From the NCBI GenBank assembly GCA_963713975.1, contig OY970218.1:1088001-1152000 (forward strand): DNA of 64,000 nucleotides. Direction: 5' to 3'. The position numbers and the translations under genes are program-made. This document shows positions 16,322 to 31,302 of this stretch, piece by piece. Numbering within the stretch: position 1 is the first letter of the stretch; each line of letters starts with the position of its first letter. A model generated the notes under the pieces. That model had not been told where the DNA came from. It did not search any database and worked only from the letters and a program-made list of their open reading frames with translations. This DNA comes from an uncultured Chloroflexia bacterium. Its GTDB lineage: Bacteria; Chloroflexota; Limnocylindria; Limnocylindrales; CSP1-4.

Positions 16322-17785
16322 CTAGAGGATCGCTGCGGCGGCCGTCCCGACGATGTCCAGCAGCAGGCTCGGGAACAGGCCCATCATGACGGTCACGACG
16401 GACGCCACGGCGAGGCCAGCCCAGACCAGGCGGCCGTGCCGCAGCGGCGGCAACTCCTCGGCGGGATCGCGCATGAACATGTACACGACGACGCGCAGGT
16501 AGTAGAAGGCCGCCACGGCCGCGTTGAGCACGGTCAGGACCGCCAGGACGTTCAGCCAGCCACCCACCTCGACCGCGGATGAGATCACGAGGAACTTGCC
16601 GAAGAAGCCGGCCGTGGGCGGGATGCCAGTGAGGCTGAGCATGAACAGGGTCATCAGCCAGGCCAGTGCGGGCTCGCGGCGGATGAGGCCGGCAAAGCTC
16701 GAGAGGTTGCTCGTGATCCCGCGCCGCCGCTGGATGGCCACGATGACCGCGAACGCGCCGAGGTTCATGAACGCGTAGGCGGCACCGTAGAACAGCAGCG
16801 CCTCCATCCCCGCGATGTTGCCGGCGGCGTACGCCGCGAACGCGACCAGCATGTAGCCGGTGTGCGCAATCGACGAGTAGGCCAGCATCCGCTTGACGTT
16901 GTCCTGCGTCAGGGCCACCAGGTTGCCGAGGGTCATGGTCAGCGCCGCGAGCACCATGATCACGGCGTTCCAGTCCGCGGCCATGGGGCCGAGCGCCTCG
17001 GCGAACAGCCGGATGATCAGCGCGAACGCCCCGATCTTGGGTCCCACGGACAGGTAGCCGGTGACGGGCGTCGGGGAGCCCTGGTACGCGTCGGGTGTCC
17101 AGTAGTGGAACGGGACCGCCGCGATCTTGAAGGCGACGCCCGTGGTCAGGAACGCGAGGCCCATGCCCAGGCCGGGCGGGAACGGTGCGGCCCCGGACAC
17201 CATGCCCTCCAGCGCCGCCGCCACGCCTTCGATCCGGGTGGTGCCGGTGAGGCCCCACACGAACGCGAGGCCGAACAGGAAGATCGCCGACGAGAACGAG
17301 CCGAGCAGGAAGTACTTGATCGCGCCCTCGGTGCTGTACCCGTCGCTCTTGTGGTAGCCGGCAAGGACGTAGCCCGGGAGGACCATGAGCTCGAGGCCGA
17401 GGAACAGGACCAGCAGGTCCGCGGAGCCCGCGATCAGCATGGCCCCCGACATGGCGAAGACGATGATCGCGGCGAACTCCGCGACCGGCAGCCCGCGCTC
17501 CTCGAGGTAGTCGGGTGCGAAGGCCATGGTCAGGGCAACGATCGCCACGAACAACAGGTCCAGGAACGTGGCCAGGGGATCCACGATGTAAGCGCCGCCG
17601 AACGAGTCTCCCTCCGTCTGGCCGGTCAACACCACGAGGACCGCGATGAGCGCGAGCCCGGCGAAGGTCGTGACCAGGGCCGGGACCTTGCGCCCGGGGA
17701 AGATGAAGTCCACGGCGAGGATCGCGGCGGCGACGAGGATCGCCGCGACGAAGGGCGCCAGCGTGACGATGTCGGGGAAGGTCAC
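16322..17785 (-). CDS. nuoN: NADH-quinone oxidoreductase subunit N
   Basis: 'EGAIKYFLLGS', 'FKIAAVPFHYWTPDAYQGSP', 'KRMLAYSSIAH'; GGAGG RBS before the GTG. Confidence 0.96.
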   Translation of the reverse strand: MTFPDIVTLAPFVAAILVAAAILAVDFIFPGRKVPALVTTFAGLALIAVLVVLTGQTEGDSFGGAYIVDPLATFLDLLFVAIVALTMAFAPDYLEERGLPVAEFAAIIVFAMSGAMLIAGSADLLVLFLGLELMVLPGYVLAGYHKSDGYSTEGAIKYFLLGSFSSAIFLFGLAFVWGLTGTTRIEGVAAALEGMVSGAAPFPPGLGMGLAFLTTGVAFKIAAVPFHYWTPDAYQGSPTPVTGYLSVGPKIGAFALIIRLFAEALGPMAADWNAVIMVLAALTMTLGNLVALTQDNVKRMLAYSSIAHTGYMLVAFAAYAAGNIAGMEALLFYGAAYAFMNLGAFAVIVAIQRRRGITSNLSSFAGLIRREPALAWLMTLFMLSLTGIPPTAGFFGKFLVISSAVEVGGWLNVLAVLTVLNAAVAAFYYLRVVVYMFMRDPAEELPPLRHGRLVWAGLAVASVVTVMMGLFPSLLLDIVGTAAAAIL

Positions 17786-17795
17786 CGGTGTCCTC

Positions 17796-19348
17796 CTACC
17801 GCCACAGGCCGAGGGCGATGGGCGAGGCCTGCGAGACGGCAGCAAGCGCGTAGTCGACGGAGCCCGCGATCAGGTCCAGGATCAGGCCCGGCCAGAGGCC
17901 GAACACGACGACCAGCGCCCCAAGCGGCACCAGCGTCATGGCCTCCACCGGCCGCATGTCGGTCAGGTGGTGTCCAAGGCCCTTGAGGAAGTCCGACACG
18001 TCTCCGAACGCCACCCGCTGGAACATCCACAGCAGGTAGCCCGCGGCCAGGATCATCACGAAGGTCGCGATTGCCGCAGCGGCGTAGTTGCCGGACTCGA
18101 ACGTGCCCAGCAGCGTCAGGAACTCGCCCACGAACCCGGACAGGCCGGGCAGGCCGACCGAGGCGAAGACGAAGAAGCCGAAGGCGGCCGCGAACACGGG
18201 CACCGGAGCGCCCAGGCCGCCCATCTTGGCGATCGTGCGGTCGTGGGTGCGCTCGTAGATGACGCCCACGAGGAGGAACAGCGCGCCGGTGATCAGGCCG
18301 TGGTTGACCATCTGGAGGATCGCGCCCTGCATGCCCTGCTCCTGGAACACGAAGATGCCGAGGGTCACGAAGCCCATGTGGGAGACGGACGAGTACGCGA
18401 CCAGCTTCTTGAGGTCCGGCTGAACGAGGGCGACGATCGCGCCGTAGATGATCCCGATCAGCGACAGGACGATGATCAGCGGGGCCCACGAGTGGGCCGC
18501 CTCGGGGAACAGCGGCAGCGCGAACCGGATGAACCCGTACCCGCCCAGCTTGAGCAGGACGCCGGCCAGGATCACCGACCCGGCCGTGGGCGCCTCGACG
18601 TGCGCGTCGGGGAGCCACGTGTGGAAGGGGAACATCGGGACCTTGATCGCGAAGGCCAGGAAGAAGGCGCCGAAGGCCAGCAGGCCGAAGGTGCCGCCGA
18701 ACGCACCGGTGGCGGCGTACTCGGACAGCGCCTGGACGTTGAACGCTCCCACCCAGCTGCCGTCGTGCCCGGCCTGGTAGGTGTACGCGGTGGCCAGGAT
18801 CGCGACCAGCATCAGCAGCGAGCCGACGAGGGTGTAGAGGACGAACTTGATGGTGGCGTAGATGCGGTTCGTGCCGCCCCAGATACCGATGATCAGGTAC
18901 ATCGGCACCAGGACCAGCTCCCAGAAGACGTAGAACAGGAACATGTCCATCGCCACGAACACACCGATCATGCCGACTTCCAGGACCAGGAAGGAGATCA
19001 TGTACTCCTTCACCCGGGTCTGGATGGGGCTGAACGAGGCCAGGATGCTGATCCAGGTCAGCGTCGTCGTCAGGACGACGAGGACCAGCGAGAGACCGTC
19101 GACGCCGACGGCGTACTGGATCCCAAATGCCGGGATCCACTCCGCGACCTCCTTGAACTGGAAGCCCGGCTCGCCAGCGACGAAGGCCACGAGCAGTGCC
19201 AGCGAGGCCACCCAGGCCGCCAGCGCGAACCCGAGGGCCACGTAGCGGGCGAGGTTCGGGCGGCTCCGAGGCGTCACCGCGACGACGAGCGCCCCGAGCA
19301 GGGGCAGGAACGTCACGATGGTCACCAGCGGCAACCCGTTGAGTGCGG

Positions 19349-19352
<4 letters not shown>
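17796..19352 (-). CDS. nuoM: NADH-quinone oxidoreductase subunit M
   Basis: 'IKVPMFPFHTWLPDAHVEAPT', 'LLKLGGYG', 'KKLVAYSSVSHMG'. Confidence 0.97.
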
Positions 19353-21409
<2,057 letters not shown>

Positions 21410-21421
21410 CTCGGTCGCCGC

Positions 21422-21754
21422 CTACTGCCGCATCGCGTCGTACTCGTCGACGAGTGGCGTCTTCTTGTTGCGGTAGATCGCGATCACGATCGCGAGGCCC
21501 ACCGTCGCCTCCGCGGCCGCTGCCGCCATGACGATCAGCGCGATGACGGACGCGTCCACGTTGAGCGACAGGCTGAAGGCGCCGAACGCGATGATCGCGA
21601 GGTTGACGGCGTTGAGCATCAGCTCGATCGACATCAGCATGCTGATCGCGTTCCGCCGGGCCAGGAAGCCGAACGAGCCGATGGCGAACAGGAGGCCGGC
21701 CAGGATCAGGTAGGCGTCGAGGCTCTGCGAGACGTTGTCGAGGAAGGACAGCAT
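21422..21754 (-). CDS. nuoK: NADH-quinone oxidoreductase subunit K
   Basis: 'RRNAISMLMSIELMLNAVNL', 'AAAEATVGLAIV'. Confidence 0.96.
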   Translation of the reverse strand: MLSFLDNVSQSLDAYLILAGLLFAIGSFGFLARRNAISMLMSIELMLNAVNLAIIAFGAFSLSLNVDASVIALIVMAAAAAEATVGLAIVIAIYRNKKTPLVDEYDAMRQ

Positions 21755-22290
21755 CAGCCGGCATCCTCCCGCTCGCGCTTGGCGAGGTACACGCCGCCGA
21801 TCACGGCGGCCAGGAGCAGGACGCTCACCACCTCGAACGGCAGCGTGTAGTCGCTGAACAGGGTCGTCGCCAGCTCCGTCGTGTCGGTCCAGATCCGGGC
21901 CCCCGCCTCGGGCCAGTCCGTGGCCACGATGCTGAGGATCACGAGGACGGCGAGCACCGCGGACGCGATCGCCGCCGGAAGGGCCTGCGTCTGGAACACC
22001 AGCTCCCGGGGCGCCGCCTTGGTCTGGGTGAGCATGATCGCGAACAGGACCAGGACGCTGATCGCGCCGATGTACACCAGGACCTGCGCGGCGGCGACCA
22101 CCGGTGATCCCGCGATCACGTAGAGCCCGGCCAGGGCGGCGAAGCAGATGATCATCGCCAGGCCCGACCGGATGATGTCGCGCATCAGGACGACCAGGAG
22201 GGCGGACCCGAGCATGACGGCCGCGAAGCCCATGAACAGCAGGTCGTCCCACCCGATCCCGAGCAGCGGGATCGTCTCAGGCAGCGTCAC
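21754..22290 (-). CDS. nuoJ: NADH-quinone oxidoreductase subunit J
   Basis: 'AQVLVYIGAISVLVLFAIML', 'YTLPFEVVSVLLLAAVIG'. Confidence 0.95.
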   Translation of the reverse strand: MTLPETIPLLGIGWDDLLFMGFAAVMLGSALLVVLMRDIIRSGLAMIICFAALAGLYVIAGSPVVAAAQVLVYIGAISVLVLFAIMLTQTKAAPRELVFQTQALPAAIASAVLAVLVILSIVATDWPEAGARIWTDTTELATTLFSDYTLPFEVVSVLLLAAVIGGVYLAKREREDAG

Positions 22291-24947
22291 GCGTCCCTCT
22301 CAGCGTTCGGGGCGGAGACGGCGTTTCCGGACCCTTGGTGGTGTCCGTTGCCGTTGCCGTTCCCGTGTCCGATCGCAAGCGAGGCCGGCAGGACGGGGAG
22401 CAGCCGGGACTCGTCGAGGATGCGGCCCTCGGCCCGTGCACGCTCCGCCCAGTCGCGCTCGCGGCGGATGTAGCTCATCTCCGTCTCACGCTCGATCCCG
22501 GCCAGCGCGAGGAGGTCGATCGACGGCTCCTCGCGGGACGTGTGGCTGAGCTCGAACTGGTCGCTGTCGCGGACGGCATCGTAGGGGCAGGCGTCGACGC
22601 AGATGCCGCACAGGATGCAGCGGCTCTCGTCGACCTCGTACTTCTGGAGGACGCGCGGCTTGGGCATCAGCGCACCGGTCGGGCACGTCTCCGCGCAGCG
22701 GCCACAGGACACGCAGGGCGTGTCGTTGAGGCTCATGTCCAACGGCGTCGTGACCAGAGTGTCGAAGCCGATGCGCATGAAGTCGTAGCAGGCGGCCCCC
22801 ACGACCTCGGCGCACACGTTGGCGCAGCGGCCGCAGTCGATGCACCGGGCGGGCTCGCGCAGGATGAAGGCGTGGGAATCGTCCCGGACGTAGTCGTGGT
22901 TGACGCCGGTGAACCGGTTCTCCGTCACGGACCGGTAGCCGGCGCCGGAGTGGAAGGTCTTCTCGAGCGTCCGAAGGGTCGTGCCGTACTCGATGCCCAG
23001 GCGGCGCAGGTCGCAGAAGCCGATCGCCTCGCATGTGCACTGGAGGCAGCGGGTCGACTCGGCCACGGCCTCGTCCCGCGTGTACGGGATCTCGTACTCG
23101 ATGTAGCTCGCGTTGCGGATCTCGGCCTCGAGGCCCTTGAGGCGGTAGCGCGACTCCTTGATCTCGCCGGTGAAGGGCACGATCGAGAGGAACTCGGGCT
23201 GCGGCTCCGCGAGCGTCTGGCGGGTCCGGATGGCAGCCAGGTCGTTGCCTCGGAGGTAGGCGTCCACCGCGTAGGCCGCTCGCCGCCCCTCGGCGATGGC
23301 CTGGACGACCGTCGCCGCGCCGATCCGCACGTCACCCGCTCCGAACACGCCGGGACGCCCGGTCTCGAACGTGACGGCGTCCGCCTGGAGGCGGCGGTTC
23401 CGGGTGGCCGTCAGGCCGTCGTTGCCGGGACCGAACCAGGCAAGGTCGGGGCCCTGGCCGATGGCGAGCAGGACGCGGTCGCAGGGGATGGTGAACTCGG
23501 TGCCGGCGGCCGGCTCCGGGCGGCGGCGGCCGGATGCGTCGGGCTCGCCGAGCTGCATCCGGATGAACTCGATCCCGACGGCCTTGCCGGTCTTCTCGTC
23601 AGTGACGACGCGCGTCGGACCGGCCTGGAAGATGGTGGTGACACCCTCCTCGATGGCCTCGTGGACCTCGCTCGCGGCCGGCATGTCCTTCATGTCGCGG
23701 CGGTAGACGAGCGTGACCTCGCCGGCGCCCTGGCGAACCGACGTCCGGACGCAGTCCATCGCCGTGAAGCCGCCGCCCACGACGACGACGCGGGTGCCCT
23801 CGTGGCCGGGGTACGGCAGGCCCAGCGTGGCGGTGCGCAGGTACTCCAGGCCGTCGATGACGCCGTCGGCGTCCTCGTTCGGGATGCCAAGCTTGTTCGT
23901 GTCGTAACAGCCGATGGCGACCACGACGCTGTCGAAGCCCTGGTGCTGGAGGTCGTCGAGCGTGAAGTCCCGGCCCAGCTCCATGTTGCAGCGCATCTTG
24001 CCGCCGAGCCGGGTGACCGACTCGTACTCGGCCTCGAGCACCTCCACCTTGGGCAGCCGGTACTGTGGGATGCCGTAGCGGAGCATGCCGCCGGGGGCCG
24101 CGTCGCGCTCGAAGATCGTCACACCGTGCCCGGCGAGGAGCAGGTAGAACGCCGCGCTCATGCCGGCGGGCCCGGAGCCGATGACCGCGGCCCGGCGCCC
24201 GGACGGCGCCTGCTTGTCGAACGGCAGCGGCGGGTCGACGTCATCATCGAGCATCGCCTTGAGCACCTGGTCGCCGGCATAGCGGTGGCTGTCGCGGATG
24301 GCGATGGCCTCGTCCACCTCGTCCCGCCGGCAGTGCTCCTCGCAGGGTGCCGGGCAGACCCGGCCGAGGATGCTGGGGAAGGGGATCGTGCGCTTGAAGA
24401 TGCGCACCGACTCCCGCCAGTTGGCCTCCGCGTTGGCCTTGAGGAAGCCGGGGATGTCGATGTGGCTGGGGCACTTGTTCTGGCAGGGCGGCAGGCAGTA
24501 GGCGTTGTGGTCCGAGAAGATCAACTCGAGGTTGGTCCGCCGGATCCGGCGCAGGTCGTCGGTCTGGGTCCGGACGACCATGTCCGGCTCGGCTGCGCGC
24601 GAGCACGAGATCGGCGGCTGCTCCTCGCCCTCGACCTCGACCACGCACATGCGGCAGGCGCCGAACCCCGGCAGCTTGGGCTCGTAGCACAGGGTGGGGA
24701 TCTCGATCCCGTTGTCGCGACAGACCTCGAGGATCGTCTGCCCCTCGAAGCCCTCGACGACGCGTCCGTCCACCTCGATCCGGATCCCCGGCGTGCTCTG
24801 CGGGCGCTGCGGCGACTGCGTGGTGAGCAGACGCTCCGCGAGCGAGTCGTCGCGCGGCGTGATGGTGTCGTAGATGAGCGGCGAGTCGGGGCGGACCTCG
24901 CGGGGTCGGTCGAGCGGGCCCTCGGGGCGCGTGATCAGGTCGGCCAT
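22287..24947 (-). CDS. Multidomain Fe-S flavoprotein: NuoG-type [2Fe-2S] + GltD/NfnL-like FAD/NADP(H) domain + 2x[4Fe-4S] motifs + NuoI C-terminal half
   Basis: IPTLC..GACRMC..C; PPCQNKCP; GRVCPAPCEEHC; GSGPAG; GGGFTAMD..VYRR; RCLQC; CIDCGRCANVC; CVSCGRCAETCP; YEVDESRCILCGICVDACPYDA..FEL. Confidence 0.85.
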   Translation of the reverse strand: MADLITRPEGPLDRPREVRPDSPLIYDTITPRDDSLAERLLTTQSPQRPQSTPGIRIEVDGRVVEGFEGQTILEVCRDNGIEIPTLCYEPKLPGFGACRMCVVEVEGEEQPPISCSRAAEPDMVVRTQTDDLRRIRRTNLELIFSDHNAYCLPPCQNKCPSHIDIPGFLKANAEANWRESVRIFKRTIPFPSILGRVCPAPCEEHCRRDEVDEAIAIRDSHRYAGDQVLKAMLDDDVDPPLPFDKQAPSGRRAAVIGSGPAGMSAAFYLLLAGHGVTIFERDAAPGGMLRYGIPQYRLPKVEVLEAEYESVTRLGGKMRCNMELGRDFTLDDLQHQGFDSVVVAIGCYDTNKLGIPNEDADGVIDGLEYLRTATLGLPYPGHEGTRVVVVGGGFTAMDCVRTSVRQGAGEVTLVYRRDMKDMPAASEVHEAIEEGVTTIFQAGPTRVVTDEKTGKAVGIEFIRMQLGEPDASGRRRPEPAAGTEFTIPCDRVLLAIGQGPDLAWFGPGNDGLTATRNRRLQADAVTFETGRPGVFGAGDVRIGAATVVQAIAEGRRAAYAVDAYLRGNDLAAIRTRQTLAEPQPEFLSIVPFTGEIKESRYRLKGLEAEIRNASYIEYEIPYTRDEAVAESTRCLQCTCEAIGFCDLRRLGIEYGTTLRTLEKTFHSGAGYRSVTENRFTGVNHDYVRDDSHAFILREPARCIDCGRCANVCAEVVGAACYDFMRIGFDTLVTTPLDMSLNDTPCVSCGRCAETCPTGALMPKPRVLQKYEVDESRCILCGICVDACPYDAVRDSDQFELSHTSREEPSIDLLALAGIERETEMSYIRRERDWAERARAEGRILDESRLLPVLPASLAIGHGNGNGNGHHQGSGNAVSAPNAERDA

Positions 24948-26287
24948 CAGCGGGCTCCTGCTGGTGCCGTGCCGGCGCCCACCGCGATCGGTGTGCACAC
25001 GCCGGCGGGGCAATGGGAGCGAAGGAGGTGGTCGTCGATCTCAGCGCGGAAGTGGCGCATCGCGCTGGTGAAGGGCAGGGTGGCGAGACGCTCGTGGTCG
25101 CACAGCGCGGAGGCCGCGATGTCCTCGGCAAGGTCCGTCAGCAGGGCCGCGTCCGTGGGCTTGGGCCGGCCGGAGGCAATCCGGTCGCCGATCTCGTACA
25201 GCCGGCGCAAGCCGATCCGGCAGGGGATGGATTTGCCGCACGCGGCGTCCGCGGAGAACTTCGTCAGCAGGCGGGCGAGGTCCACGATGCAGGCACGCTC
25301 GTCGGCGACGACCACGGATCCGGAGCCGATGTGAGCGCCGGCATCCCGCAGGGCATCGAAGTCGTAGGGGGTGTCCAGGAGATCCGGGGGCAGGAGGCCG
25401 CCCGTTGGACCGCCGACGAGCACCGCCTTGAGGGCCCGGCTGCCCGTGCCGCCCGCGAGCTCCACGATCGTGCGAACGGGCGTGCCAAGGGGCACCTCGG
25501 CCATTCCTGCGCCCTCGGGCCCGCGCACCTGGACGAGGATGGTCCCCGGTCCGGCCGGCGAGCCGATGCCTGCGAATGCCTCGCTGCCGTGGGCCACGAT
25601 CCACGGGACCGCGGCCAGCGTCTGCACGTTGTTGACCACCGTCGGCCGGTCGAACAGGCCCTTCTCGGTGGGGTACGGCGGTCGTTGGTCCGGCTGGCCG
25701 CGCTTGCCCTCGAGGGCCTTGATGAGGACGGTCTCCTCGCCCAGCATGTAGGCGCCCTGGACGGTTCGGACCGTCATGGTCACGCGATGGCCGGATCCCA
25801 GCACATCCTCGCCCAGGAAGCCCGCCTCCTCGGCCGCCAGCATCGCGCCCTCGAGGAGGGTCACCAACGCCGGGTCGTCGCCGCGGACGGCGAGGATCGC
25901 CTCGGTTGCGTCGACCGCGAAGGCGGCGATGGCCAGGCCCTCGATCACGGCCCAAGGATCCCGGCGCATCAGCTCCGCGTCGGTCTGGACCGCCGGGTCC
26001 GCGCCGTACCCGTTGGCGATGACGTAGCGCTGGTCTGCCGGCCGGCCGGCCGCGGCGCGCCACTTCTCGCCGGTCGGGAAGCCCGCGCCGCCGCGGCCCC
26101 GGAGCCCGGAGGCAGCGATCGTCGCGATCGTGCCGGTGGCGCCCAGGTCCCGAACCGTCGTGCGGAGGCTCTCGAACGCTCCCTCGCGGACCGCGGCATC
26201 GAGGTCGGACGGGTCCGCGGCCAGTGCGGCGGCACGCCCGGTGAGGATCGATGGCCAGTCGGCGGGCGTCGTGAGGAAGGGGCTCAT
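24947..26287 (-). CDS. nuoF: NuoF/HydB-like subunit with degenerate FMN/NADH and N3 motifs
   Basis: SGLRGRGGAGFPTGEKW and GEET..LEGKRGQP are intact. NGYGADP replaces NADEGEP and CGKSIPC replaces CGxCxPC. C-terminal H..CPAGVC. Confidence 0.8.
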   Translation of the reverse strand: MSPFLTTPADWPSILTGRAAALAADPSDLDAAVREGAFESLRTTVRDLGATGTIATIAASGLRGRGGAGFPTGEKWRAAAGRPADQRYVIANGYGADPAVQTDAELMRRDPWAVIEGLAIAAFAVDATEAILAVRGDDPALVTLLEGAMLAAEEAGFLGEDVLGSGHRVTMTVRTVQGAYMLGEETVLIKALEGKRGQPDQRPPYPTEKGLFDRPTVVNNVQTLAAVPWIVAHGSEAFAGIGSPAGPGTILVQVRGPEGAGMAEVPLGTPVRTIVELAGGTGSRALKAVLVGGPTGGLLPPDLLDTPYDFDALRDAGAHIGSGSVVVADERACIVDLARLLTKFSADAACGKSIPCRIGLRRLYEIGDRIASGRPKPTDAALLTDLAEDIAASALCDHERLATLPFTSAMRHFRAEIDDHLLRSHCPAGVCTPIAVGAGTAPAGAR

Positions 26288-26949
26288 CAGCTCGTGCGCC
26301 CCCCGAAGCCGAGGGAGGTGTCCAGCGCAGCCACGAAGGCGCTCTCGCCGGCCCGGTGTGCCTCACCCGCCGCGGCGATCGGCGTCATCGCGGGCGGCTC
26401 GAACCGGAGGTGGCCGTAGGAGGAGGCGGTGCCGTAGATCATGGCGTACCAGGCCCCGGTGATCCGCGAGATGTGCCTGAGCGCGGCCACGGGCAGGTAG
26501 CCGTACACCGCCTGCGTCTCCTCGAGGATGGCCAGCAGCAGCTTCGGGTCGTAGTCGCGGGCCTCGAGGATGGCGTCCAGCGGCGCCAGGTCGATCTGGT
26601 CGAACCGTGCGTAGGCCGGGTCGGCGACCGGTCGGCCGGATCGCCGGAGCGCGGACTCCTCGCGCCGCTCGCCGTACGTCTCCGAGGGACCCCAGTGCAC
26701 GTGGAAGCGCCCCTTGGTGTCCACGCCGCCCATGTCGATGCACTCGATGGGGCACGCCTGGGCGCACTGGAAGCACGTCTCGCACTTGAGCGTGCCGTAC
26801 TCGTCGTAGAGGAGCTGCAGGCGGCCCCGGAACTTGGGTGCCACGTCGGCGCGCTGCTCCGGCCACATGATCGTGGCCTTGGGCTGGAAGAACCGGCGCA
26901 GGGTGAGACCCATGCCGCGGACCAGACCGATGCCGGGGATGAAACTCAT
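26287..26949 (-). CDS. Fusion of NuoI N-terminal half and NuoE N-terminal helical domain (no [2Fe-2S] domain)
   Basis: 'GMGLTLRRFF..KATIMWPE..KFRGRLQL..KCETCFQCAQACPIECIDM', then 'LLAILEETQAVYGYLP..IYGTASSYGHL'. Confidence 0.8.
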   Translation of the reverse strand: MSFIPGIGLVRGMGLTLRRFFQPKATIMWPEQRADVAPKFRGRLQLLYDEYGTLKCETCFQCAQACPIECIDMGGVDTKGRFHVHWGPSETYGERREESALRRSGRPVADPAYARFDQIDLAPLDAILEARDYDPKLLLAILEETQAVYGYLPVAALRHISRITGAWYAMIYGTASSYGHLRFEPPAMTPIAAAGEAHRAGESAFVAALDTSLGFGGRTS

Positions 26950-26956
26950 AGGACGC

Positions 26957-28300
26957 TCACAGGCTCCTCACGACGACGATCGCCGTGGCGGTGATGAACA
27001 GGTTGAGCAGCGCGGCGGGCAGCAGCCACTTCCAGGCGAAGCCCATCAACTGGTCGATGCGCACCCGGGGGAAGGTGCCCCGCATCCACACGAAGATGAA
27101 CACGAAGGTGAAAGACTTGAGCATGAACCAGGCGATGCCCGAGACCCAGTCCCAGCCGATGTAGGCGAGGCCGAGCAGCGCGCCCATGGCCACGAGGTTG
27201 AATGTGAGGAACCCGAGGACCAGCGCCTGCCAGCCGGGGCTCTTGGTCCGCACGAGGTAGAAGGGCATCGCGAACAGCAGGGTCAGGGCGACCGGTGCCG
27301 CTGCCGCCAGGATCAGGAGGCCGATGCCGAGGCTGCCCGGATCGAGCGCCAGCGTGATGTCCGGGAACGGGAACGGCGCGTTCCAGGCCCCGAAGAACAG
27401 GGTCACCATCAACGCCGAGACGATGAACACGTTCACGTACTCGGCGAAGAACAGGAACCCGAAGCGCATCCCCGAGTACTCGGTGGCGAAGCCGGCCACG
27501 ATCTCCGAGTCGGCCTCGGTCAGGTCGAATGGCGTACGGTTGGCCTCGGCGGTGGCGGCGATGAAGAAGATCAACGCCCCCAGCGGCTGACGGAACACGA
27601 ACCAGTTCGTGAACCAGCCCCCCTGCTGCTCGGCGATCCCGTTGAGGCTCATCGTCCCGGCAAGCAGGATCAGGCCGACCACGGACAGCGTCAGCGGGAG
27701 CTCGTAGGAGATGGCTTGGGCCGCGGAGCGGAGGCCACCGAGGAGCGAGTACTTGTTGAAGCTGGACCAGCCCGCGAGCAGCAGGCCGACCACCGTCATG
27801 CCGCCGACCGCGAACAGGTACAGCAGCCCGATGTTGAAGTCCTGGCCCACCAGCCCGGGCCCGAACGGGATGACCAGGAAGGTCATCACCGCGGTCAGGA
27901 AGACGAGCACCGGCGCCCAGGTGAACACCAGACGGTCTGCGTTGGTCGGGGTGAAGTCCTCCTTGGTCAGCACCTTCAGTCCCGCCACCAGCGAGTGGAG
28001 GGCGCCTGCGGGTCCCACCCGGTTGGGCCCGACCCGCAGGTTCATATAGGCGATGACCTTGAGCTCCATGTAGATGATGATGAACGCGGCCGGGATGCTG
28101 AACAGCAGGATCGCCGTGATCGCCACCACGAACCGGACGATGCCCAGGTTCGAGCTCAGGACCTCCACGAGCCACGGGACCAGGTAGACCGCACCCAGGA
28201 TCGTCACGATCGGCCCGACGACGAGGATCAGGAACAGCAGCGGCAGGATGATCTTGCCGGCCGTGCTCAGGCCGCCCCGAGGCTGGTTGAGGGTCGTCAT
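26957..28300 (-). CDS. nuoH: NADH-quinone oxidoreductase subunit H (extended, 447 aa)
   Basis: 'RVGPNRVGP', 'KVLTKED', 'GGLRSAAQAISYE', 'NRTPFDLTEADSE', 'PRVRIDQLM'. Confidence 0.96.
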   Translation of the reverse strand: MTTLNQPRGGLSTAGKIILPLLFLILVVGPIVTILGAVYLVPWLVEVLSSNLGIVRFVVAITAILLFSIPAAFIIIYMELKVIAYMNLRVGPNRVGPAGALHSLVAGLKVLTKEDFTPTNADRLVFTWAPVLVFLTAVMTFLVIPFGPGLVGQDFNIGLLYLFAVGGMTVVGLLLAGWSSFNKYSLLGGLRSAAQAISYELPLTLSVVGLILLAGTMSLNGIAEQQGGWFTNWFVFRQPLGALIFFIAATAEANRTPFDLTEADSEIVAGFATEYSGMRFGFLFFAEYVNVFIVSALMVTLFFGAWNAPFPFPDITLALDPGSLGIGLLILAAAAPVALTLLFAMPFYLVRTKSPGWQALVLGFLTFNLVAMGALLGLAYIGWDWVSGIAWFMLKSFTFVFIFVWMRGTFPRVRIDQLMGFAWKWLLPAALLNLFITATAIVVVRSL

Positions 28301-28310
28301 CGGATCGCCG

Positions 28311-29543
28311 TCACTTGTCGATCCCGCCCATGACCGGATCGATGGACGCCATGACGGCCATCGTGTCCGCGATCAGGTTGCCCTTCATGAGCAGCCCGAC
28401 CAGCTGCATGTTCACGAAGGACGGGTCGTGGATCTTCATCCGGAAGGGCTGGTCCGTTCCGTCCGAGATGGCGTACGTGCCATAGAGGCCGCGCGGCGCC
28501 TCCACGGCCGCCCACGCCCGGCCCGGCCGCGGGCGGAGCAGGCGCGGGAGCCGCGCCATGATCGGGCCGTCCGGCATCTCGTGGAGGCACTGGTCGATGA
28601 TCCGCAGGCTCTGCTTCACCTCGTCGAGGCGGAGCAGGTAGCGGTCGAGCGAGTCGCCGCCACCGGGGGTGTTGCGGACCGGGATGTCGAAGTCCAGCTC
28701 CGGGTAGACGGAGTAGGGATGCGCACGGCGGACGTCGAAGGGCACGCCCGAGGCGCGCAGGTTCGGTCCTGTGACCGCCATCCGGAGGGCCGTGTCGGCG
28801 TCCAGCTTGCCGATGTCGCGCATCCGGCGGACGAAGATCTCGTTCTCGTTGAGCAGCCCGATGTTGGCCTCGTGCTGCTTCGCGGCTCGGCTCATCCAGT
28901 CGCCAAGGCGGGACATGAACTCGTGGTTGAGGTCGCCGTTCACGCCGCCGATGCGGAAGTAGTTGAACAGCATCCGCTGGCCGGTGATGGCGGCCAGCAT
29001 CTCCACGATCTCGTCACGCTCGATGAAGCTGTACAGGATCGGGGTCAGGCCGCCGAGGTCCAGCGCCATCCAGCCCTGGTACAGGGCGTGGCTGGAGACA
29101 CGCAGGAGCTCGCCGGTGAGCACCCGGATGTACTCCGCGCGGCGCGGCACCTCCACGTCCAGGAGCTTCTCGAACGCCATCACGGGCGCCCACTCCATGA
29201 ACAGCGAGCTCACGTACTCGAGCGGGTCCACCTGGCTGATGATGTGGTGGTAGTCCGAGTTCTCGCACAGCTTCTCCACCCCGCGGTGGAGATAGCCGAG
29301 GACCGGGTCCAGGTCGACGACCTGCTCGCCGTTGATCTTCAGGACGACGCGCAGCACGCCGTGGGTCGACGGGTGCTGGGGTCCCATGTTGAGGAACATC
29401 TCGCCGTCGCGCAGGCTGTAGAACTCGGCCTCGCGCTCGGTGCGGGGCGGGTACGGCGGGACGGCCTCGAACGCACCGATCTGGTTGTCGAGCATGATCC
29501 GGGGATCGTCCTCGGACGGGTGCTGGCCGGTGGGCGCGGTCAT
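28311..29543 (-). CDS. nuoD: NADH-quinone oxidoreductase subunit D
   Basis: 'NMGPQHPSTHGVLR', 'GYLHRGVEK', 'GPNLRASG', 'EAPRG'. Confidence 0.96.
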   Translation of the reverse strand: MTAPTGQHPSEDDPRIMLDNQIGAFEAVPPYPPRTEREAEFYSLRDGEMFLNMGPQHPSTHGVLRVVLKINGEQVVDLDPVLGYLHRGVEKLCENSDYHHIISQVDPLEYVSSLFMEWAPVMAFEKLLDVEVPRRAEYIRVLTGELLRVSSHALYQGWMALDLGGLTPILYSFIERDEIVEMLAAITGQRMLFNYFRIGGVNGDLNHEFMSRLGDWMSRAAKQHEANIGLLNENEIFVRRMRDIGKLDADTALRMAVTGPNLRASGVPFDVRRAHPYSVYPELDFDIPVRNTPGGGDSLDRYLLRLDEVKQSLRIIDQCLHEMPDGPIMARLPRLLRPRPGRAWAAVEAPRGLYGTYAISDGTDQPFRMKIHDPSFVNMQLVGLLMKGNLIADTMAVMASIDPVMGGIDK

Positions 29544-29546
29544 CGG

Positions 29547-30095
29547 TCAGGCCTTCACGGTGCGGCGAACCACGAGCTCGGGCGCCTGGGCCGGCGGGTG
29601 GGGCTGCTCCATGTGGCGGACACCACCGCCCGGGGAGCGCGCCGCATCGTCCGGCAGGTAGAAGTCCTTGCGCAGCGGGAAGCTGGTGTAATCGGGGGGC
29701 ATGTAGATCCGCCGCAGGTCGCGGTTGCCCTCGAAGATGATCCCGAACATGTCGTACGTCTCGCGCTCCATCCACTCCGCGCCGGGCCACAGCCCGGTCA
29801 GGGTGGGGATGCGCGGGTTGTCGCGGGGCAGGCCGTCTGCGATCACGCGCAGCCAGTCCGTCGTGGTCGCCGACCACAGGTGGTAGGTGACCTGCATGTG
29901 GGCCCCGGTGTCCACGCCGGCGAGATCCGCGAGGACCCCGAAGGCCAGCTCTGGCTCGTCATGGAGCGCGGTCATCACCTCTGTCAGGCTCGCCGGGCCG
30001 ATCCGGATCTCGGTCTCGTCGTGGCGCTGCCGGACCGGTCCCGTCAGGTGATCCGCGAACCGGCCCTCGAGGAGCTTGCGCAGCTGGCGATCCAT
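29547..30095 (-). CDS. nuoC: NADH-quinone oxidoreductase subunit C
   Basis: 'WPGAEWMERETYDMFGIIFEG..DLRRI...FPLRKDF'. Confidence 0.95.
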   Translation of the reverse strand: MDRQLRKLLEGRFADHLTGPVRQRHDETEIRIGPASLTEVMTALHDEPELAFGVLADLAGVDTGAHMQVTYHLWSATTTDWLRVIADGLPRDNPRIPTLTGLWPGAEWMERETYDMFGIIFEGNRDLRRIYMPPDYTSFPLRKDFYLPDDAARSPGGGVRHMEQPHPPAQAPELVVRRTVKA

Positions 30096-30097
30096 GG

Positions 30098-30841
30098 CTA
30101 GACGTCCCGCGGGACGTTGGGCCCGATGGGATGATCCGGCCAGTGGCCCCGCCGCTCCTTGACGAGCTGGCCCAGCTTCATCATCCCGTAGATCAGGCCC
30201 TCGGGGCGGGGCGGGCAGCCGGGGACGTACACGTCGACCGGCATCAGGCGGTCGATGCCCTCGATGGTGGAGTAGCTGCGCTTGTAGCGGCCGCCCGAGC
30301 ATGTGCAGTCGCCCATCGCGACGCACCACTTGGGCTCCGGCATCTGCTCCCACAGCCGGACGAGCGGGCCGGCCATCTTGGTGGTGAGCGTGCCGGCGAC
30401 GATCAGCACGTCCGCCTGGCGGGGGCTCGCACGGAACGGGAACATGCCCCAGCGATCCATGTCGTTCTTGGACGTGGCCGCGGACATCATCTCGATGGCG
30501 CAGCAGGCCAGGCCCGACAGGAGCGGCCACAGGCTGTTCATCCGGATCAGGTCGACGAGCAGGTCCGCCTTGGTGGGGATCACCTCCAGCGCGCCCCAGC
30601 GTGCCGTGTCCGACAGGACCAGGTCCGAGCCCTCCAGGTTCCGCAGGTGGGTGAACGCCGGGCTCCCGGAGCGGTACGCGTCCGGGCTGGTGGACGTCCA
30701 CAGCGTGTTGGGCACGACGAGTGGCTGCGCGACATCTCGCGGGGTCGCGGCGACCAGCGCCGATGCGGCGTTCGCGGCGGGGGGAGCGTCCGCCGCGGCG
30801 GCGTCGGGGACGACGGCCTCGCCCGCTTCGTCGGGGGTCAT
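30098..30841 (-). CDS. nuoB: NADH-quinone oxidoreductase subunit B
   Basis: '[10 protein letters not shown]', 'RASPRQAD', 'MGDCTCSGG', '[12 protein letters not shown]'. Confidence 0.96.
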
Positions 30842-31200
30842 CGCCACGACAGCACCCCCTTGCGCCATGCGTAGGCAAGGCCGAACAGGAGGATGCCGAC
30901 GAAGACCAGCATGCTCACGAACAGCGTGATCGGATCCGGGGCATCCCTGAAGATCAGGGCCCACAGGAAGATGAAGATCACCTCGATGTCGAAGGCGACG
31001 AACATCAGGGCGTAGATGTAGAACGAGATGCCGAAGCGGGCGTGCGTGTCGCCGTAGGTGTCGATGCCCGACTCGTACGGGTAGCCCTTGTGCTCGTCAC
31101 CACGGGTACGGTGGGAGATCAGCCAGGCCAGGCCGATCGTCCCGAAGACGAACAGGGTGCCGGCGATGACGAACCCGACGACGTACCAGATCCCGGTCAC
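30838..31200 (-). CDS. nuoA: NADH-quinone oxidoreductase subunit A
   Basis: 'YESG', '[10 protein letters not shown]', 'YAWRKGVL'; GTG 31200 has a GAGG RBS (alternative start 31293). Confidence 0.93.
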
Positions 31201-31302
31201 GAGGTCCTCGAGGCCGAACGGGGCCGGAGTCGACGGCCGGCCCTCGATCGTGCGGTTGGGTGGCGATGGCTCCGCCCCGCTGGCGCGCGGCACGGCGCGG
31301 TC

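Follow-up and report, generated by a model that had tools for sequence, protein, structure and literature searches.

The closest described relatives of the system considered here are soluble enzymes of the Stn/NfnABC group (Bfu-type). As described for StnC of Sporomusa (PMC10482914), a [2Fe-2S] N-terminus is followed from residue 102 by a GltD domain carrying flavin adenine dinucleotide (FAD), NADPH and two [4Fe-4S] clusters, and then by NuoG-type clusters and an inactive, formate-dehydrogenase-like (FdhF-like) domain. The same work shows experimentally that StnC binds NADPH at the GltD domain and passes electrons along its clusters: from FAD they move to the pair of clusters in the GltD domain and on to the NuoG-type chain, and a two-cluster branch leading toward the FdhF-like domain is a dead end (PMC10482914). 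The protein analyzed here, called G', belongs to an uncultured bacterium of the class Limnocylindria (phylum Chloroflexota) and is encoded at 22287..24947 on the minus strand of a 64,000-nucleotide stretch of DNA (the window; contig OY970218.1, positions 1,088,001 to 1,152,000). It lies in an operon for respiratory complex I. G' is probably, though not securely, the NADPH-binding subunit of an input module that derives from Stn/NfnABC and has become fixed into the sole complex I of this organism.

The G' gene begins with an ATG at 24947 and ends with a stop codon at 22287-22289, giving a protein of 886 residues; an alternative, longer open reading frame with a TTG start reaches 25013, in a window whose G+C content is about 70%. 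The domains of G' follow one another on the minus strand. A NuoG/HydA-type [2Fe-2S] domain at residues 55-129 (24561..24785; Pfam Fer2_4, E 5e-20) precedes an H-x3-C pair, H147 and C151, supplied by the motif DHNAYC. Inserted behind this pair is a GltD/NfnB-type domain (residues 151-570; 23238..24497; Pfam Fer4_20 at 151-229 and Pyr_redox_2 at 253-554), which has two [4Fe-4S] Cys motifs, the GxGxxG loop GSGPAG for FAD (257-262), the second Rossmann loop GGGFTAMD for NAD(P)H (391-398) and the Arg-Arg pair of YRR (415-417). In domains of this type, an Arg-Arg after the second beta-strand binds the 2'-phosphate. Past the insertion, the NuoG-type cluster region resumes with a C-x2-C-x-C-x5-C group (C634, C637, C639 and C645 of the motif RCLQCTC..C; 23013..23048), which is also found in StnC and in 9bov_A. 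It is followed by a HydA/StnC-type ferredoxin-like domain with two CxxCxxCxxxC motifs (residues 695-760; 22668..22865; Pfam Fer4_Nqo3 and Fer4 families) and by the C-terminal half of NuoI (residues 764-808, approximately; 22524..22655). This half contains the second CxxCxxCxxxCP motif of NuoI (C777-P788) and an FEL(S) motif, and the ferredoxin-type 4Fe-4S motifs detected by Pfam extend to residue 792. The Pfam search found no molybdopterin family in G', and the NuoG model TIGR01973 matches over positions 1-98 of 606 only, with 90 bits against a cut-off of 470; the top NCBIfam model is PRK12814 (555 bits, residues 55-714). The initial annotation of this gene had described a NuoG-type [2Fe-2S] N-terminus, a full GltD-like domain set inside a His-ligated cluster motif and the lack of a molybdopterin-like NuoG C-domain, and all three descriptions hold.

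A Pfam Fer4_7 match at residues 745-791 suggested that the motifs C745-P756 and C777-P788 might form a self-contained 2x[4Fe-4S] ferredoxin. This assignment was rejected because the C702 motif shares one domain with the C745 motif in StnC and 9bov_A, and because the last motif of G' is the exact complement of a half-NuoI encoded upstream. Beyond the NuoI half, the tail of G' (22290-22523, minus strand) ends in a low-complexity, Gly/Asn/His-rich segment, whose length differs among close relatives and which is missing in family f3, a sister family of the same class.

Among chains of known structure, G' is most similar to 9bov_A (E 4e-157, residues 55-787) and also closely similar to StnC (8oh5_C; E 3e-139, residues 55-789) and NfnA (9n5u_A), so that the likeness to Stn/NfnABC-type fusions noted in the initial annotation is borne out. 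Identity to StnC/NfnA-type chains is 40-46% across about 730 residues, and the GltD part of G' was also aligned with GltD and DPD chains. A search of representative protein sequences turned up chiefly StnC-type proteins of 1000-1370 residues along with fragments of the G' family. NuoG chains of complex I, by comparison, align only to residues 55-156 or thereabouts. G' stops about 100 residues beyond the StnC alignment, whereas StnC-type chains are 1172-1178 residues long, and nothing of StnC's FdhF-like domain survives in this C-terminal stretch of roughly 100 residues. By its domains and alignments, G' is a StnC/NfnA-type subunit.

The nucleotide site of G' points to NADPH. YRR stands at the same aligned place in 5/5 NADP(H) enzymes (NfnA, 9bov_A, StnC, T. 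maritima NfnB and P. furiosus NfnL), in agreement with the earlier suggestion that YRR after the second Rossmann fold marks NADPH-type enzymes. In an alignment of 14 G' sequences reaching down to 41% identity, the four 2Fe-2S cysteines (C87, C98, C101 and C115), H147, C151, the GltD cluster cysteines, both dinucleotide loops, the C634-C645 group and the three CxxCxxCxxxC(P) motifs are all invariant, and Y415, R416 and R417 are each conserved in at least 90% of the sequences. With ligands and loops invariant and YRR nearly so over such a range, the motifs are not a product of chance. H221 is likewise invariant in the family; StnC has K170 and NfnB has Glu at that place, and this Glu of NfnB ligates a cluster. 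Taken together, a preference of G' for NADPH is most likely. It is very unlikely that complex I is instead driven by NADH alone, with the GltD-type domain binding NADH or nothing and persisting as a structural remnant of the acquired module. StnC itself retains a non-functional remnant domain and a cluster branch that leads to it (PMC10482914), so retained dead parts do occur in this family. A remnant, however, would not be expected to keep its loops and cluster ligands invariant down to 41% identity or YRR at 90% or more; G' is also among the best conserved subunits of the complex, and its YRR matches that of all five NADP(H) enzymes.

The connection of G' to complex I is seen in NuoI. The genes form a single minus-strand operon in the order nuoA-B-C-D-H-[I_N-E']-F'-[G'-GltD-I_C]-J-K-L-M-N (Pfam and NCBIfam assignments), where I_N and I_C are the two halves of NuoI, and E' and F' are the partners of G'. 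The NuoI model TIGR01971 has 121 positions, of which 1-65 match the N-terminus of the I_N-E' protein and 71-114 match the C-terminus of G'. I_N-E' (26287..26949, minus strand) has 220 residues and fuses the N-terminal half of NuoI to the helical N-part of a NuoE/StnA-like protein: in searches of the Protein Data Bank (PDB), NuoI/NDUFS8 chains align to residues 9-73, and 9bov_C and 8oh5_A to residues 117-191. The E' part thus resembles 9bov_C, StnA and NfnC, and no NuoE chain of complex I was found for it at E values up to 0.01. It contains no Cys and no thioredoxin-like 2Fe-2S domain, and so does not amount to a NuoE with cluster N1a. In the NuoI part, C56, C59, C62, C66 and P67 form the first CxxCxxCxxxCP motif and are invariant in 13 sequences; across the alignments of I_N-E', G' and the G' C-terminus, the Cys motifs of both NuoI halves are invariant. 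The second NuoI half stands in G' where StnC has its inactive formate-dehydrogenase-like domain. At the gene junctions, stop and start codons overlap (TGATG between I_N-E' and F' and between F' and G'; GTGA between G' and nuoJ). From the operon order, the split NuoI matches and these junctions it follows that a three-gene Stn-like cassette is located inside nuoI, with in-frame fusion at both ends. In the sister family f3, the I_N-E' protein (L023:9384-10232) keeps a degenerate thioredoxin-like domain in which, according to the alignment, the Cys ligand positions are apparently replaced; it resembles a transitional stage on the way to losing N1a.

Whether the two halves of NuoI can meet was addressed by complex prediction with residues 690-886 of G' and residues 1-112 of I_N-E', using separate alignments and three controls. 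The pair scored 0.55 (runs 0.55, 0.55 and 0.47), and the best of the three controls scored 0.00. The runs agreed in at least 74% of contacts, with a predicted local distance difference test (pLDDT) value of at least 62 for the partner. The mark used for such predictions is reached by 116/157 solved complexes and 2/215 mismatched pairs, and scores that reach it but do not exceed 0.60 come from only 18 of the 157 solved complexes and from both mismatches. Since NuoI is present whole in solved structures of complex I, passing the mark may reflect likeness to them. The prediction gives weak support to a contact between the halves.

The operon is the only respiratory complex I of this genome, which consists of one contig of 3.62 Mb and is 92% complete, and it lacks an intact nuoI or nuoG. 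A genome-wide profile search gave one strong NuoH match, and NuoC, NuoJ and NuoK each occurred once. None of the 11 genome matches to TIGR01971 reaches the model cut-off, no one-polypeptide NuoI with two CxxCxxCxxxCP motifs was found in the genome, and no NuoG in it reaches the TIGR cut-off. This makes it scarcely credible that the module is a separate, soluble Stn-like transhydrogenase which merely sits in the nuo operon, with complex I working without it. The closest solved relatives are soluble, and this speaks for such an enzyme. However, both NuoI halves exist only as fusions to module proteins, and the sole complex I would therefore be without NuoI. The soluble assembly would also be lacking parts: the FdhF-like domain, whose deletion blocked purification of an active Stn complex (PMC10482914), is absent, as are the ferredoxin domains of the B subunit and the E-like [2Fe-2S] cluster. 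Furthermore, the module genes are translationally coupled to nuoJ. A genome of family f4 in the same class (G317) provides a further argument, as its genes are divided into two clusters, B-D-[I_N-E']-F'-G'-methyltransferase and C-H-J-K-L-M-N. Its only NuoB is in the module cluster and its only NuoH is in the other cluster; with one NuoB and one NuoH in the genome, the module is clearly part of the sole complex I there.

The third component of the module is F', a NuoF-like subunit of 446 residues for flavin mononucleotide (FMN), encoded at 24947..26287 on the minus strand. It is of the HydB/NfnB/StnB type, with PDB search scores of 346 bits for HydB, 340 for NfnB and 323 for StnB, compared with at most 259 for NuoF of complex I, and it reaches 338 bits against the NuoF model TIGR01959, whose cut-off is 559. 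Pfam recognizes only Complex1_51K and NADH_4Fe-4S in F', which aligns to residues 160-573 of the 630 residues of HydB; the extra Fe-S domains of HydB, NfnB and StnB are missing. The FMN loop GLRGRGGAGFPTGEKW and GEET are kept throughout the F' family, and LEGKRG and three of the four N3 cysteines are conserved as well. Because the [2Fe-2S] cluster of E' and the extra clusters of the B subunit are gone, the module would be a plain dehydrogenase head and not a bifurcating one.

These observations suggest a mechanism in which the three module genes (a truncated NuoE/StnA-like, a NuoF/StnB-like and a StnC-like gene) inside nuoI would yield proteins that hold the input head to the pump. The NuoI halves would join, jointly bind the [4Fe-4S] clusters N6a and N6b, and staple the module onto NuoB, NuoD and NuoH. 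Electrons delivered by NADPH to the FAD of the GltD-type domain would proceed over the two [4Fe-4S] clusters of that domain and join the NuoG-type chain. Their exit would be the second ferredoxin-like cluster, from which they would enter the re-formed N6a/N6b pair, reach N2 in NuoB and then quinone, driving the pumps NuoL, NuoM and NuoN. The FMN subunit F' is probably a second entry point, feeding NADH into the same chain. The NuoI half of G' begins about 20 residues past the C745 motif. As this half is fused exactly at the start of the branch that is a dead end in StnC, that branch may have become the exit here. If this is correct, the proton pump may run on NADPH besides NADH. It is from the sequence that we infer the substrate preference, assembly, electron path and direction of the module, and the same holds for the two candidate functions named in the initial annotation, a proton-pumping NADPH:quinone oxidoreductase or a reverse-electron-transport NADP+ reductase.

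Several points weigh against an NADPH-accepting module wired in this manner. The proposed route differs from the canonical step from N5 to N6a, and the score obtained for the contact between the NuoI halves is a weak one. The preference for NADPH is based on a motif common to NADPH enzymes, and the best 80 relatives of G' in genome records all come from uncultured metagenome-assembled genomes (MAGs; 78 with Chloroflexota-type names and 2 with other labels; identity 73-98%). The genome encodes PntB, so the two pyridine nucleotide pools could be linked without a complex I that burns NADPH. The remaining points concern the NADH side of the module. The E-like part has lost the N1a domain, and the nicotinamide-pocket loop, which is NADESEPGTFKDR in canonical NuoF of the phylum, is NGYGADPAVQTDA in F'; relative to canonical NuoF, it is altered in 13/13 members of the F' family. 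In Aquifex NuoF, as described in PMC6560083, E95, E97 and D103 of this loop contact NADH via water, and a flip of the E95-S96 peptide is coupled to N1a. In addition, the second N3 Cys is Ser in F' and is Ser, Thr or Ala across families f1 and f3 of the class. It is kept in family f4 and in detached cassettes found outside the class. Its replacement means that the link from FMN to the chain may be weakened or changed. The fourth N3 Cys of F' is followed by D-H. The N3 cluster of F' could be three-Cys-ligated or of the 3Fe-4S type.

Taken further, these changes in F' would fit a complex I that accepts NADPH only, in which F' no longer oxidizes NADH but serves as a scaffold or electron store and all electrons enter at the GltD-type FAD. 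The remodeled pocket loop of the entire family, the loss of the second N3 Cys in f1 and f3 and the absence of N1a all favor this explanation, and so does the degree of conservation: in comparison with a locus of family f3 (L023), F' and I_N-E' are the least conserved subunits (45% and 42% identity, compared with 57-65% for G', B, D and H). Nevertheless, an NADPH-only complex is unlikely. Conservation of the FMN loop, GEET, LEGKRG and three of the four N3 cysteines is hard to explain for a dead site, and the cassettes and family f4 retain all four N3 cysteines.

The direction of electron flow raises a further alternative, in which reverse operation is the main role and the proton-motive force drives electrons from quinol to NADP+ at the GltD-type FAD, providing NADPH for biosynthesis. 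In principle, both complex I and domains of the GltD/Nfn type can run in either direction, and several hydrogenase-like loci in the genome could reduce quinone. StnABC also works in both directions (PMC10482914). No sequence feature tells the direction, however, and PntB is present as a supply of NADPH. Moreover, with no second respiratory complex I in the organism, nothing else would fill the forward role. A mainly reverse role is accordingly regarded as quite unlikely, and an NADPH-binding input module feeding the pump in the forward direction is still preferred.

The remaining genes of the operon code for the membrane arm and the Q module. All seven membrane subunits, A, H, J, K, L, M and N, are encoded together (Pfam, NCBIfam). 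The Q-module proteins NuoB, NuoC and NuoD are present, and the N2 Cys ligands of NuoB (CC, C, C) align with those of canonical NuoB of the phylum; a NuoG with a molybdopterin-like C-terminal domain is not among the subunits of this operon. All genes are on the minus strand. Upstream of the module lie nuoA (30838..31293; Pfam Oxidored_q4, E 4e-30), nuoB (30098..30964 as the listed open reading frame, with the true start probably further downstream; NCBIfam NuoB, 214 bits), nuoC (29547..30200; Complex1_30kDa, E 2e-36; its start is uncertain, as the listed frame extends to 30878 and overlaps nuoB), nuoD (28311..29543; NCBIfam NuoD, 434 bits) and nuoH (26957..28300; Pfam NADHdh, E 3e-107). Downstream follow nuoJ (21754..22290; GTG start; Pfam Oxidored_q3, E 9e-33), nuoK (21422..21730, corresponding to residues 176-275 of the listed frame; NCBIfam NuoK, 108 bits), nuoL (19349..21409; NCBIfam NuoL, 720 bits), nuoM (17796..19352; NCBIfam NuoM, 584 bits) and nuoN (16322..17845; NCBIfam NuoN, 429 bits). 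Complex I with NuoG replaced by a GltD/NfnL-type flavoprotein, as first proposed for this locus, is therefore only part of the picture. G' does hold the position of NuoG in a complete operon, but this is no simple exchange of NuoG: the whole E/F/G module is Bfu-type and reduced, and it lies inside a split nuoI, each half of which is fused to a module protein.

Directly upstream of nuoA is a gene for an NDUFAF7/MidA-like methyltransferase (PF02636; 31401..32747, minus strand; Pfam Methyltransf_28, E 1e-45). Members of the NDUFAF7/MidA-like family methylate the NuoD homologue during assembly of mitochondrial complex I. A methyltransferase of the same family adjoins the 11-subunit nuo operon described in Ca. 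Actinomarina (10.1101/2021.02.01.429150). In G317, the PF02636 gene (L024:14355-15389) is found directly downstream of the module.

Other redox loci were noted in the same genome. At C1:1164686-1172004, 13-20 kb past the right end of the window, lies a second complex I-like locus with two antiporter-like genes, genes resembling nuoB, nuoH (a weak match) and nuoD (26% identity), and a NuoI-like motif. It probably encodes a membrane-bound hydrogenase of the group-4 type or a related enzyme. At C1:779510-783386, an open frame of 1215 residues joins a NuoF-like to a GltD-like domain and is followed by HoxU-like and NuoB/HoxY-like genes; the arrangement resembles a gene cluster for a soluble, NAD(P)-linked enzyme of the hydrogenase type. 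A molybdopterin-type match to positions 268-604 of the NuoG model (C1:674482-675759) belongs to a frame of 1070 residues with one in-frame TGA and may represent a selenocysteine formate dehydrogenase. In total, there are four NuoF-like genes in the genome and no fewer than seven GltD-like ones.

The split arrangement extends across the class as far as it was sampled. A protein search with G' scored 7999 candidates and gave 6499 hits; among the best 120 of these 6499 matches, more than 100 clusters of 816-919 residues share 81-93% identity with G', and the named sources of the matches listed are nearly all Chloroflexota or Candidatus Limnocylindrales MAGs. In species-representative genomes, at least 486 of 599 candidate stretches for the C-terminal region of G' were confirmed. 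I_N-E' was searched for in 401 genomes of the phylum Chloroflexota, a set that includes six genomes flagged as unpublished (0/6 carriers). Some match was obtained in 372 of the 401, mostly to the NuoI part alone. Full-length I_N-E', with both parts in one frame, was present in 46/46 sampled Limnocylindria genomes, comprising the genome analyzed here together with 23 genomes of family f1, 4 of f2, 16 of f3 and 2 of f4. Outside the class, four families include carriers, at least 16 genomes in all: f28 (at least 10 of 11), f9 (4 of 5), f19 (1 of 2) and f46 (1). These carrier numbers are lower bounds, as there are 350 further matches beyond those listed. The gene order of the window is kept in family f3.

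Outside Limnocylindria, the genomes examined (G361, G042, G066 and G129) carry the module as a detached B-[I_N-E']-F'-G' cassette. In G361 its flanking genes are unrelated, and G361 and G129 also have an isolated nuoC-D-H cluster; G361 has, in addition, a canonical 14-gene nuo operon from B to N. The detached-cassette and C-D-H loci are L025:9233-14277, L026, L027, L028, L029:7812-11255, L031 and L032. No extra J-K-L-M-N genes were seen near the cassette or the C-D-H piece in the loci examined, which suggests that two heads may share one membrane arm. The window copies resemble the cassette-linked subunits: NuoB has 55% identity to the cassette-linked copy versus 47-49% to copies from canonical operons, and NuoD has 45% versus 37%. 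A more speculative proposal can be derived from these layouts, for which the odds are clearly below even. The spliced cassette might represent an independent route by which the 11-subunit complex I ancestor gained an input head, yielding an NADPH-burning proton pump in which N6a and N6b are each ligated by two polypeptides. In other Chloroflexota classes, the cassette, with its own NuoB and separate NuoC-D-H genes, might act as a second, exchangeable head that vies with the canonical NADH head for the shared NuoA/J/K/L/M/N arm.

The search of public sequencing data found no run with above 0.09 of the words sampled from the locus. Contigs from three RNA libraries and one DNA run covered all 30 bins of the locus at a likeness of at least 85%, as short pieces of relatives. 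One contig from an RNA library (X23, record 17) spans the 3' end of G' and the 5' end of nuoJ, and is a hint only. As an RNA library may contain DNA, these contigs do not establish transcription.

If the proposed function is correct, a class-wide NADPH flavoprotein on complex I would alter models of redox balance and energy yield for Limnocylindria, which are abundant uncultured bacteria of soil and freshwater. Complex I is NADH-specific in textbook accounts, and to our knowledge NADPH-driven versions have so far been obtained only by engineering. The locus would also provide a natural case of a ferredoxin-fold subunit that is split over two proteins and acts as a staple, and an example of modular evolution in which a soluble bifurcating transhydrogenase was stripped down and grafted onto a respiratory pump. 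Genomes with both heads make the acquisition and exchange of complex I input modules testable. The initial annotation had allowed that the novelty would be reduced if the architecture were already characterized. This applies to the StnC architecture itself, which is described in PMC10482914; its wiring into complex I is new to the literature searched. No published description of a split-NuoI/Stn-type complex I was found there, although supplementary gene tables could list it.

Compared with StnABC/NfnABC (PDB 8oh5, 9bov and 9n5u; PMC10482914, PMC11829005, PMC12018979), the module of the window shares the set of an E-like subunit, an F-like subunit and a NuoG-N/GltD subunit, together with the FAD/NADPH loops, YRR and the cluster motifs as far as the second of the ferredoxin-like ones. 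It differs from them in that G' has the second half of NuoI in place of the FdhF-like C-terminal domain, that the B subunit F' lacks the N- and C-terminal Fe-S domains, that the E-like subunit is reduced to a helical part fused to the first half of NuoI, and that the genes belong to a membrane complex I operon. The module also falls outside the BfuBC core as defined by Schut et al. 2022 (clusters B2-B5 and the [2Fe-2S] of BfuC; PMC9304861).

With canonical 14-subunit complex I (Thermus Nqo1-15, E. coli and M. smegmatis 8e9g), the locus has in common the membrane subunits, NuoB/C/D with the N2 ligands, the NuoI motifs, an FMN subunit and the NuoG-type 2Fe-2S/4Fe-4S N-terminal region. Unlike the canonical enzyme, it has NuoI on two polypeptides, places E/F/G between nuoH and nuoJ and not between nuoD and nuoH, lacks N1a and the NuoG C-domain, and has gained an FAD/NADPH domain with two [4Fe-4S] motifs. 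Many Chloroflexi genomes have been reported to contain 13/14 nuo genes, with only nuoG lacking (Spero 2015).

Two further arrangements in which complex I-like operons have taken up such parts have been described. In the proposed 'Nuo-Bfu' of Geobacter, Deferribacteres, Planctomycetes and Nitrospirae (Schut et al. 2022; PMC9304861), a Bfu-type ABC set replaces NuoEFG, as it does here. As presented in that study, 'Nuo-Bfu' has an undivided NuoI, a NuoG-like A subunit and the full bifurcating BfuBC core and is proposed to use NADH and ferredoxin, whereas the module of the window is a reduced one of the Nfn (GltD) type that lies within a split NuoI; the survey required the BfuB ferredoxin domain, which is missing in F' (PMC9304861). 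The mbx-like operons of Thermotoga and proteobacteria (Degli Esposti 2015; PMC4758237) likewise have a GltD-type flavoprotein at the position of NuoI. According to their description, these are of the Mbx/Mrp type and are without NuoF/NuoG-type proteins, whereas the operon in the window keeps the split NuoI motifs and a full NuoA-N host.

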